The notes under the pieces are model-generated. The model did no database searches and was not told the DNA's origin. It saw only the letters and a list, made by a program, of their open reading frames with translations. Shown here in pieces: positions 3,231 to 6,224 of a stretch of 54,647 nucleotides of DNA; the first letter of the stretch is position 1, and each line of letters starts with the position of its first letter. Source of the DNA: Prorocentrum cordatum (Eukaryota); contig CAUYUJ010000222.1 of the NCBI GenBank assembly GCA_963575745.1, forward strand, positions 62,001 through 116,647, read 5' to 3'. A program made the position numbers and the translations under genes.

Positions 3231-4467
3231 GGAAAAACGCCGATGACGGGGACAGGCGAGGTCCCCCGTGAAGGGGTGGCAGAGGGAGAGGCAGCAGAGG
3301 CGGAGGCGGAGGCAACCATCATCGTCACGCTCGTCCTGCTCCAGCTGCTCTTCGTCCGCTTCGACCTGCACCTGCTCATCCTCGCCCTCTTCCACCATCC
3401 CTCCTCCTCCTCCTCCTTCGAGTTCTCCAACTCCTCTATTCTCCAATCCTCCACCTCCTCCTTCGAGCTCTCCTCCTCGGCCTTCTCCCAACCTTCGACC
3501 TGCCGTTCTACTCGTAATCTTCCTGGTCCGCCTCCTGCCTTGCCTCCTGTTCGCCCTCACTCCGAAAGACGATGACGACAATGACGATTGACGAAGGCGG
3601 GGTGTAACAAACTCCGCAGTCCTCTTCGCGCGTTGTCTCGCCTCCTTGACCTGGCCCTCGAAGATGCTAACGATGTCGTCCTCCATCTCCTTAGGATGCA
3701 TGATCGGGCGATATGAAACTGGCAAGCCTGTTGCTCGTCGATCGCCTAAGTACGTCCCAGCGGGTGACTGCACAATTTTGGGACCTCGTTTCCCGAGGAT
3801 GGGGCCTCTAGGGTCCCAAGGCCGTGCGGTGACGGACCGTGCGGTGAGGTCTCCTGGGAGCTCGAGCCACCGCAAGTTCTGTCACCGCACGGTGCTGACA
3901 GCCCCAGGCGATGGCCGATCCGCCCGCTCGGGTGCTGCGGCCCTGGCCCGAGGTGCTCCCAGCGCCCAGGCCCTCCAGGCCGTCGGGGCCTCCCCGGGGC
4001 CTCCCCGGGGAGACCCCGGGCCGTGGACGCCTGTGGTAACCCCCGACTCGTGGCGCTCGTGCGGGGGAGATCTCGCGCCCTCGCCCGCTTCCCATGTGGA
4101 CGCCCGGGAGGGGTATGTACAGGAAACGCATGAGCACAATATGCCCGACGACAGATGAAGCCCCAAACCACCAGCGGCCACTGCTGGCCAGGCAACCTGC
4201 CACCTCAAGTGGGCACCGTCCGCGGCGACGCCGACGGCGAGTCGGCGAGTCCTCCTCAGAATTAGCAGGAGCTGCTGTCGGCCGTTGTGCCAATTCTTTC
4301 CCTACCCATTCCGACCGTCTCGGACTCCCAGAACCTGGACAATCGCGGAGCACCGACGAAAATGCCCGAAGACCTCGGACCCCCCCCCAGGGAAGCAGCC
4401 GCGCCGGCGCACCGCGCAGCGTCCTTCCTCCTCCTCCTCCTCCTCCTCCTCCTCCTCCTCCTCCTCT

Positions 4468-6149
4468 CACCTGAGGCAGGTTAAGCCGAACCTTCGCTCG
4501 AGCCACATTCGCGGACCGTTGTCGGCGATGGTGGCGTTTCTGCTGGACAACGGCTGGGACCTGCAGTCCGCCATCTGCTGGGCCATGCCGCCCACGGAGT
4601 CGGGCGAGGTCATCGAGTGGCAGTTCCCTGACACGGCGTGGACGGGCTTCGTGGATGTCGACGCGCCGAGAGAGCTTGTGAGCGATTTGAGTAGTTCTAT
4701 ATATCGTTGCGCAAGATTTACCAGCAGTTCTCCAACATCCCGCACGGCAACCGCATGGAGGAGGTGCTCAGCATGGTCGTCACGGGCGGCAGCTGGGCGA
4801 GAGATCGGCGAGTTGACGCAGCGGAGTCAAGGCGCTGGGTTTGTCACGCCTCTGCCCGAGGTGTGGGCAGGAGGCCGAGACCATGTTCCACCGGGGCTGG
4901 AGCTGCCCCAAGAACGTGGGACCACCAGCGTACGTTGGCTCGCAGGACTTGCTCCCGCAGGCCTACAGCAGGTACGACAGTGAGCAGTGCTACTGGTTGC
5001 GGGGGTTGCTGCCAGCCAGGTGGACCGAGGTGACATCACCGCAAGAGCGTGAAGAATGGCACGTGTCGGGCGCAGCGGCAGGTAGTCTCGAAGGTCTCCC
5101 GTTCGGGCACGGTACCGAGCAAAGGCCACTGTGGTTTTTTGCTGATGCCAGTGGCGGCGCCGACTCGGCCGACAACAGGTTCAGACGCGTGGGCCTGGCG
5201 GTCGTCAGCGTGAACAATTTCGAGCCCCTGGTTCTCGATGGGACGGTGTCGGGGGTCTTCCAGGGGCACGGCAAAGTGTTCCCAGGGGGGAGCTGTTCGC
5301 GCTGCTCATCGCCGTCAGGATGTCCAGCGGGTGCGTGCACTTCGTCACGGACAGCAGTGGAGTTGCAGACGGCTGGTACTCGCATAGGTGCGCCTCTCCC
5401 AGCGGCAAGGATGCCGATCAGTGGAACAAGATCGGAGTGGCTCTGGCTGGACGCAGTCAGGCTGAATTTGTTGTGTTGTTTGCGAATTCGCATTTGTCGC
5501 CGACACAAATGATTCCAGGAGCTGCGCCGTGGCAGTTGATTGTTGGCAACGCGGCGGTTGACGAAATGGCGGAAGGTGCGGCACGTCGAGTCAGGCTTGC
5601 CGAGACCGAGAGACATCGTGAACACAGGTTCGAGAAAAAGGTGTGTCAGATAAGTTTGAGACTGATCAGAACTACACTTGATGCTCGGGGGTCCGAGGGC
5701 GAACTGGTGCAAAAGACAGACCGCTGAGAAAAAAAACGAAGTGTGTGAACCATCGCCTCCCCCTGCCGCTTCTGTGTGCATGCAATTTGCCACCAGCCAC
5801 GTTCTTGATGACTGGCCAGCGTTGTAAGAATTAATTTAGCTCTTCTTCCCAGGCTGACAAGGCCCAATGTATTCCTCTCAAAATGTTAGACCCGCTGCTG
5901 TTGATGGTAGGTTCCGTGTGTTGCCGTCGGGGGTTTAATTACATGCAGGGGGGGCTGGGTACACAGTACCTACATAATGCTTCTGCACCAATCCTTGAGG
6001 CTCTGGATTCGCTCACAGTGCGGGCATAGGAGACTGGGTCGCTGAATATTAAAATCGGATCGAATCCGATCGATGGCCGCAAAGCCGATATGTTCGCTCG
6101 TAAGCGCTCGCAGTTCGCTTCGGCTCGCACCTCGAATGTTCTCACTCAC
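4468..6149 (+). mobile_element. 5'-truncated, frameshifted LINE: post-RT region, zf-RVT-like finger, RNase H, C-terminal Cys motif, (TCC)n tail
   Basis: Spread across frames: RGPLSAMVAFLLDNGW; CPRCGQEAETMFHRGWSC; RNase H motifs FADASGG, QSVPRGEL, FVTDS, NSH, GNAAVDEMA. Collinear with the 16895-18600 element; (CCT)n on both sides. Confidence 0.9.
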
Positions 6150-6224
6150 TCCTCCTCCTCCTCCTCCTCATCCTCCTCCTCATCTTTCTCCTCCTCCTCC
6201 AACGCCTGGCGGCCACCCAGGATT

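Follow-up and report, generated by a model that had tools for sequence, protein, structure and literature searches.

The window analysed here, 54,647 nucleotides of the dinoflagellate Prorocentrum cordatum (contig CAUYUJ010000222.1, positions 62,001 to 116,647), contains three copies of a long interspersed nuclear element (LINE) whose termini adjoin (TCC)n microsatellite tracts that read in the sense of the element. The association between LINE and TCC tracts is real and not a matter of chance. How it arises can be put only as the reading that we favour, with modest confidence: the element would make an RNA ending in (UCC)n, which would prime on the GGA strand of TCC tracts, and it would therefore prefer such tracts for insertion and be able to seed new ones. 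The copies and the tracts at their ends, in window coordinates, are these.

4426-4466, plus strand: perfect (TCC)13.7 at the 5' truncation point of copy 1 (Tandem Repeats Finder, TRF; 100% matches).
4467-6148, plus strand: LINE copy 1, 5'-truncated and decayed, with the end of the reverse transcriptase (RT) region, a CCHC motif and RNase H.
6149-6200, plus strand: imperfect (TCC)n at the 3' end of copy 1, 17 units, 85% matches.
16756-16830, minus strand: (TCC)25 tail of copy 2, reading GGA on the plus strand (TRF, 97% purity).
16831-22342, minus strand: LINE copy 2, minimum extent; 16946-21669 matches positions 3-1541 of the 1553 in the family profile.
22345-22385, minus strand: CT-rich patch with (CCT)3, read from the sequence, a candidate 5' junction of copy 2.
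26392-26870, plus strand: long imperfect (TCC)n array of ~480 nt, ending exactly at the start of copy 3.
26869-26889, plus strand: relic of the dinoflagellate spliced leader (DinoSL) heading copy 3, 19 of 21 bases.
26890-28057, plus strand: LINE copy 3, with a 5' untranslated region (UTR), a coiled-coil region resembling open reading frame (ORF) 1, and a remnant of the apurinic/apyrimidinic-type endonuclease (APE).

What kind of element is this? Its matches to APE, RT and RNase H identify it as an APE-type LINE with a predicted APE endonuclease, RT, CCHC motif, RNase H and Cys-rich C-terminus. In copy 2, the frame 20101-22569 matches Pfam Exo_endo_phos (PF03372) at E=1.9e-6, with 28.3 bits against a cut-off of 24.5, and the APE match to the family profile (positions 3-388) lies at 20386-21669. 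The RT frame of copy 2 contains an FVDD motif; it gave no match to Pfam RVT_1 even at E<=5, and a single-sequence search of the PDB matched no chain. In a library of 1.84 billion proteins it has relatives in 2729 cluster representatives (E<=0.001), and a profile of the relatives matches human LINE-1 (L1) ORF2p (E=1.5e-15), RNase HI (E=1.2e-11) and, more weakly, the R2 protein (6.3e-5). Eight relatives were scanned with Pfam at E<=0.001: RNase_H was present in five, RVT_1 in five and Exo_endo_phos in four, with all three together in 3/8; the relative P0011 had no Pfam match at the same threshold. As in other non-LTR (long terminal repeat) elements, copy 1 is 5'-truncated (its profile match starts at position 978 of 1553) and copies 1 and 2 are tailed, and self-BLAST found no repeats flanking copy 2, that is, no LTRs. 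The pointers to a clade are that the nearest solved protein is L1 ORF2p, that an Atlas row named Tx1 scores 0.87, and that zf-RVT matches at E=0.021, below the Pfam cut-off. To judge from these relatives, the family is large and highly diverse, as LINEs of the Symbiodiniaceae are described to be, abundant and strongly diverged, in the part of PMC8045281 that bears on them.

The family profile is a hidden Markov model of 1553 positions built from 31 full-length relatives of 1400-1800 amino acids, which are all of that length among the 152 retrieved. Run on all six-frame ORFs of at least 30 amino acids in the window, it finds LINE homology at exactly three sites and nowhere else at E<=10. Copy 2 is the best preserved. 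Its ORF2 is near-complete, comprising APE, RT, CCHC motif, RNase H and Cys-rich C-terminus, and is spread over three frames (20101-21752, 18333-20048 and 16898-18649), which amounts to two frameshifts; a coiled-coil ORF1-like frame lies at 21887-22330, and the stop codon at 16895-16897 is followed by a 64-nt 3' UTR. Among sequencing runs, one weak match was listed, X1 (share 0.12), and no RNA run. Contigs of relatives from X1 were aligned to copy 2, skipping simple repeat. There are 228 of them with 80-99% identity, extending over 16811-22507, and they show a multi-copy family; by identity class, 34 contigs are at 95-99% and 8 at 99% or above. Four X1 contigs carry two extra letters at 18350/18351, exactly where copy 2 shifts frame between the RT and the C-terminal part. 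By frame arithmetic the two letters restore the RT-to-C-terminal frame, so these relatives are in frame and the frameshift is private to copy 2, which is thus a recently damaged member of a multi-copy family.

Copy 1 is more decayed. Its coding remnant at 4465-5694 on the plus strand matches profile positions 978-1393 of 1553 (hmmsearch, E from 3.8e-8 to 1.2e-34), with one frameshift near 5225, and from 5694 to 6148 there follow a decayed C-terminal domain and a short 3' UTR. Copies 1 and 2 share 33-34% protein identity by tblastn and have no nucleotide similarity. Copy 3 retains the 5' part of the element: its APE remnant at 27803-28057 matches profile positions 125-213 (E=4.2e-9) and the APE of copy 2 (BLASTP, E=0.001), and comparison of its 5' part with that of copy 2 by tblastx and blastn gave low-complexity matches only. 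Its 3' part is lost, and next to it stands a copia-type RT fragment, which probably represents a second element that truncated copy 3. This fragment, at 28111-28371 on the plus strand in the frame 27985-28785, matches Pfam RVT_2 at E=3.3e-7, just under the cut-off.

The 3' ends carry the firmest part of the argument. Outside the window, a single relative came with its own DNA.

L001, metagenome contig of 2805 bp: matches profile positions 761-1540, with 40% amino acid identity.

The alignment that gave this contig yielded no related loci in genome_contigs or viral_contigs. Its stop codon lies at ~2536, and a sense (TCC)8 stands at 2571-2595, 32 nt past the stop. A sense (TCC)n is therefore found at 3/3 definable 3' ends, those of copies 1 and 2 and of L001, which represent lineages with only 31-44% protein identity among them. 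We have high confidence that the sense (TCC)n tail is a trait of the family, as far as these sequences represent it. The strongest single point for the tail as a feature of the element is the flip in tract polarity at copy 2. Perfect tracts of at least four TCC units number 107 on the plus strand of the window and 6 on the minus strand, and grouped as clusters they number 30 and 3; the one LINE on the minus strand ends in a (TCC)25 in its own sense at 16756-16830, one of only three minus-strand clusters, which marks the tract as part of the element, not of the background. The earlier note on this DNA, made from the sequence alone, had described a tail in the element's own sense and a polarity flip at the minus-strand copy, and on both points it is well supported.

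At the 5' side, two of the three copies abut a sense (TCC)n exactly. Copy 1 was said in the earlier note to be a 5'-truncated LINE with repeat at both ends, and it is: tracts lie at 4426-4466 and 6149-6200, both on the plus strand. BLASTP alone extends homology with P0001 no further 5' than residue 117 (nt 4507), and the profile match starts at 4465, so that protein homology sets in just where the 5' tract is ending. Copy 3 was proposed to start at a TCC tract. It does so by way of the DinoSL relic, which the earlier note had not mentioned and the first bases of which merge with the array at 26392-26870. The relic also points to a dinoflagellate host. A search with the DinoSL sequence as printed in PMC8045281 gave this single match in the window (2 mismatches in 21) and 0 matches in 100 shuffles; copy 3 alone has a DNA copy of the leader at its 5' end, copy 1 being truncated. 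The 5' end of copy 2 lies somewhere between ~22342 and 22507, or farther out, to judge from the X1 contigs: one stops matching at 22342, the bin 22297-22507 still has depth, and the bins 16600-16810 and 22508-22718 have no cover. A near-length search with ORF1 of copy 2 found no relatives at E<=0.01, and hence ORF1 does not fix the 5' end. The CCT-rich 5' junction once placed at 22345-22380 holds up as a CT-rich sequence and goes no further than a candidate junction, with three perfect CCT units and no TRF row at score 30. No significant DinoSL relic was found at the 5' side of copy 2 (best local score 15, shuffle mean 17).

How often would a terminus meet a sense tract by chance? In the window, 5.45% of plus-strand positions and 0.53% of minus-strand positions have a sense tract overlapping or no more than 5 nt away, and the joint chance of four such termini is ~1e-6. 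That the element prefers to land in TCC tracts is likely, a conclusion of moderate confidence which, with few junctions (n=3), has the standing of a suggestion; targeting gains from the exact abutment of copies 1 and 3 and loses from near-complete copy 2, which lacks a clean 5' repeat. Any such preference is a bias and not an absolute specificity.

The favoured mechanism can be set out in steps. In the transcript, a tail of (UCC)n would follow ORF2 at a distance of a few tens of nucleotides, at the place where L1 has its poly(A). Target-primed reverse transcription requires the nicked bottom strand to pair with the RNA 3' end, and a (UCC)n tail would favour (TCC)n tracts, with the GGA strand as primer. 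The outcome would be insertions within TCC microsatellites that all face the same way, as seen for copies 1 and 3. Since the tail would travel with the RNA, an insertion primed elsewhere would lay down a new tract, and copy 2 may be such a case of a tail-seeded tract: its minus-strand (TCC)25 stands in a neighbourhood of plus polarity, and its 5' side has no clean repeat. Read-through into target sequence farther downstream, slippage of the RT, or the two together could renew the tail. At the other end, DinoSL opens with D-C-C (D being T here), which matches the repeat and could allow a seamless 5' junction primed by microhomology. A more ambitious version, which we regard as doubtful, would make the RNA TCC-compatible at both ends (leader U-C-C and (UCC)n tail), so that it homes by pairing at both junctions, seeds tracts elsewhere, helps to build the strand-asymmetric TCC load and drives leader-tagged retrogenes.

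Several observations weigh against the favoured mechanism. The basis is three copies and one outside relative, and the (UCC)n transcript end is a prediction from DNA. The tract of L001 has only 8 units and is followed by 210 nt, either flank or 3' UTR, so that it is possibly internal. Copy 2 has no clean sense (TCC)n on its 5' side, only the 40-nt CT-rich patch; its upstream flank is unique at 22570-23060 and then reaches an antisense tract at 23068-23166. Two of the three copies lie on the tract-rich plus strand, which leaves copy 2 as the only one whose orientation makes a real test. No target-site duplication (TSD) is readable at the LINE copies, and no conserved 3' stem-loop was found in the three 3' ends (z of +0.83, -0.43 and +0.43 relative to shuffles).

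The alternative that survives best is that the element merely makes a tail, (UCC)n being produced by slippage or encoded at the 3' end, with no preference for landing in TCC; the 5' abutments would then reflect local density or later expansion of a seed. This would suit copy 2, with its long pure tail and no clean repeat on the 5' side, the short tract of L001 after its 3' UTR, and the extreme TCC richness of the strand on which copies 1 and 3 lie (30 clusters, 107 perfect tracts). It sits less well with the exact abutment of two 5' ends, each with a chance of about 5% even when termini inside tracts are included, and with the position of copy 1 in the first 23 kb of the window, which is TCC-poor and holds ~200 of the 2475 tract bases. 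We judge a tail without targeting unlikely, while taking it seriously.

Could the specificity reside in the endonuclease, as has been proposed for Kibi and Koshi? The APE would cut within (TCC)n, and the apparent tail would be the downstream half of the target, without any pairing of RNA. According to the relevant portions of PMC4494074, target choice of non-LTR elements is set mainly by endonuclease specificity, and Tx1-clade families land in the pyrimidine-rich microsatellites (TC)n, (TTC)n, (TTCC)n and (TTTC)n. Copies 1 and 3 would fit cutting by the endonuclease as well as they fit pairing. Copy 2, however, ends in 25 units, lacks any comparable tract on the 5' side and lies in surroundings of the opposite polarity, an asymmetry for which a tail carried by the RNA is the easier explanation, and we consider specificity by endonuclease alone rather improbable.

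Template jumping is known for non-LTR RTs such as that of R2, and an RT that jumped, on completing the first strand, to another LINE RNA at its (UCC)n tail would yield tail, truncated body and tail, the arrangement of copy 1, with a 5' tract copied from RNA and not derived from the target. Ahead of its 5' tract, copy 1 has no recognisable LINE 3' UTR or terminal word, and the leader-capped copy 3 is joined to an array of 480 nt, far longer than the tails seen, so such chimeras seem very improbable. Finally, mere coincidence, with LINEs and TCC tracts accumulating passively in the same repeat-rich, low-constraint DNA, would find a precedent in the passive accumulation near CA repeats reported for Drosophila Waldo-A/B (PMC3812793, in part) and a setting in a window very rich in simple repeats, and is scarcely credible in view of the exact junctions, the tract strand that flips with the element, the sense tract 32 nt past the stop in a relative of 40% identity from another source, and the joint chance of ~1e-6.

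Is there, besides the tail, a shared terminal sequence? Two exact instances of the word AATGTTCYCA were proposed as a common terminus.

6135-6144, plus strand: AATGTTCTCA, exact AATGTTCYCA, 4 nt before the tail of copy 1.
16832-16841, minus strand: AATGTTCCCA, exact AATGTTCYCA, 1 nt before the tail of copy 2.

The word is indeed exact at both copies. L001 lacks it ahead of its tract, a third exact instance (AATGTTCTCA at 31879-31888, minus strand) has no TCC tract beside it, and a 9/10 match between two random 40-mers of the window occurred in 2.8% of 3000 trials (p ~0.03). As a shared terminal motif AATGTTCYCA is thus a weak lead among these sequences. The third instance lies in a cluster of palindromic words of the GTTCTAAGAAC type at 31800-31920 on the minus strand. 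In L001, a sequence resembling the terminal motif, AATGTTGCTCC, occurs at 2750-2765, 155 nt past the (TCC)8; should the element really end there, its tract would lie within the UTR. A DNA pattern of motif plus tail had a single match in genome_contigs, in a bacterial metagenome-assembled genome (L002) without LINE homology, which we dismiss as a chance match, and 0 matches in viral_contigs. Terminal runs of S, P or L, as read-through of the tail would give, were found in none of the 152 predicted relatives, a result that is uninformative.

The earlier note also supposed that such LINEs might explain the large CCT load of the region, and here the window lends no support. Clusters touching a LINE terminus number 3/30 on the plus strand and 1/3 on the minus strand; 29/33 have no adjoining LINE. 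The richest stretches are likewise free of LINE homology.

40152-41197 and 42896-47462, plus strand only: multi-kb TCC-rich arrays, without LINE homology in the profile search.

Elements reduced to a short interspersed (SINE-like) or UTR-only form were considered as seeds for the other 29 clusters and rejected, the 60 nt upstream having no common non-repeat word; the search returned only degenerate TCC-like words. That a LINE preference accounts for most of the (TCC)n load is therefore not supported. Large trinucleotide loads arise in dinoflagellates anyway: in Polarella, (TTG)n makes up ~19% of the genome, and no link to LINEs is stated in the part of PMC7245778 that reports it. The window as a whole has a GC content of ~60% and is dense in other simple and tandem repeats. 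A satellite family with a unit of 89-91 bp forms arrays at 7805-9106 (14.6 copies) and 25011-25537 (~4-6 copies), 16 kb apart; a (TCA)n array at 24284-24966 has a 15-bp CATCATCAGCATCAT period; a (CACG)n/(CA)n array lies at 6227-6550, and tandem repeats of 219/101 bp at 12431-12950.

Dinoflagellates have very large genomes with abundant simple repeats and a wealth of leader-tagged retrocopies, and the enzymes and rules of their retroposition are poorly known. If the favoured mechanism is true, it supplies a testable rule for where LINEs with a (UCC)n tail and a TCC bias land, and would account for the missing poly(A) of these elements. It would also link the birth of microsatellites to retrotransposition, far from the animals in which such LINEs have been described, and TCC tracts could serve in annotation as markers of element ends.

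Which known elements does this LINE resemble? Short-repeat 3' tails are found in LINEs of the CR1, L2 and UnaL2 types and in the I factor, with (TAA)n. Like these, the LINE described here has a sense short repeat instead of poly(A), placed right after a short 3' UTR. CR1/L2-type tails usually have few units and, to our knowledge, are not reported as landing sites; unlike in stringent-type CR1/L2 LINEs, a conserved 3' stem-loop was not found here. In L1, priming of reverse transcription depends on the poly(A) tail pairing with a T-rich nicked strand, and the same logic of tail and target pairing is proposed here, together with a like APE-RT architecture and 5' truncation. Tail-borne seeding of microsatellites is likewise described for human L1, in the pertinent part of PMC3812793. 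Unlike human L1, the present element would have a (UCC)n tail and a trinucleotide microsatellite as its target, and it has an RNase H domain.

Within dinoflagellates, a parallel in domain content is offered by SymbioLINE-Dnmt and other Symbiodinium LINEs (de Mendoza et al. 2018, PMC5890265, in its sections on these elements), which combine Exo_endo_phos, RVT_1 and RNase_H as here and are stated to lack poly(A) tails. The same sections mention TSDs and conserved UTRs, and neither a microsatellite tail nor a microsatellite target. Unlike SymbioLINE-Dnmt, the LINE here has no DNMT ORF1, its ORF1 being the coiled-coil frame. A DNA copy of the 22-nt spliced leader is an accepted mark of a reverse-transcribed, trans-spliced mRNA (PMC8045281, PMC6050394 and PMC5585692), and copy 3 begins with one. 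Unlike DinoSL-relic retrocopies of host genes, the RNA copied in copy 3 is that of the LINE itself, and it is joined to a TCC array. A link between dinoflagellate LINEs and microsatellites or TCC was not found in the literature outside subscription papers and bioRxiv supplements.

The nearest relatives in behaviour are the microsatellite-specific LINEs of animals. The parts of PMC3812793 on APE-type elements name Waldo (ACAY), Mino (AC), Kibi (TC), Koshi (TTC) and Dong (TAA); crocodilian Tx1 families prefer (TTCC)n and (TTTC)n (PMC4494074, in part), and Togen, of the RLE (restriction-like endonuclease) type, occupies (TG)n (PMC4640811, in part). Microsatellite specificity is taken in the consulted portion of PMC4494074 as more than 20% of flanks; our very small sample, one window and one contig, has 3/3 3' ends and 2/3 5' ends that adjoin sense (TCC)n. 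As far as the available accounts go (Kojima & Fujiwara 2004, as cited), the present LINE shares the APE type with Kibi, Koshi and the crocodilian Tx1 families; their pyrimidine-rich microsatellites, fixed orientation and repeat on both sides have a likely parallel in the few copies seen here, and the Kibi/Koshi group also has a CCHC motif after the RT in ORF2. The nearest solved protein to the present family, human L1 ORF2p, is likewise of the L1 group. Unlike them, it resides in a genome of dinoflagellate type and not in an animal, has an RNase H domain in ORF2 and includes one copy headed by a spliced leader, and TCC is not among the targets ACAY, AC, TC, TTC, TAA, TG, TTCC and TTTC described in the source texts to the extent quoted above. 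The behaviour is of a known kind; the repeat unit, TCC, and the host group, a dinoflagellate, are new.

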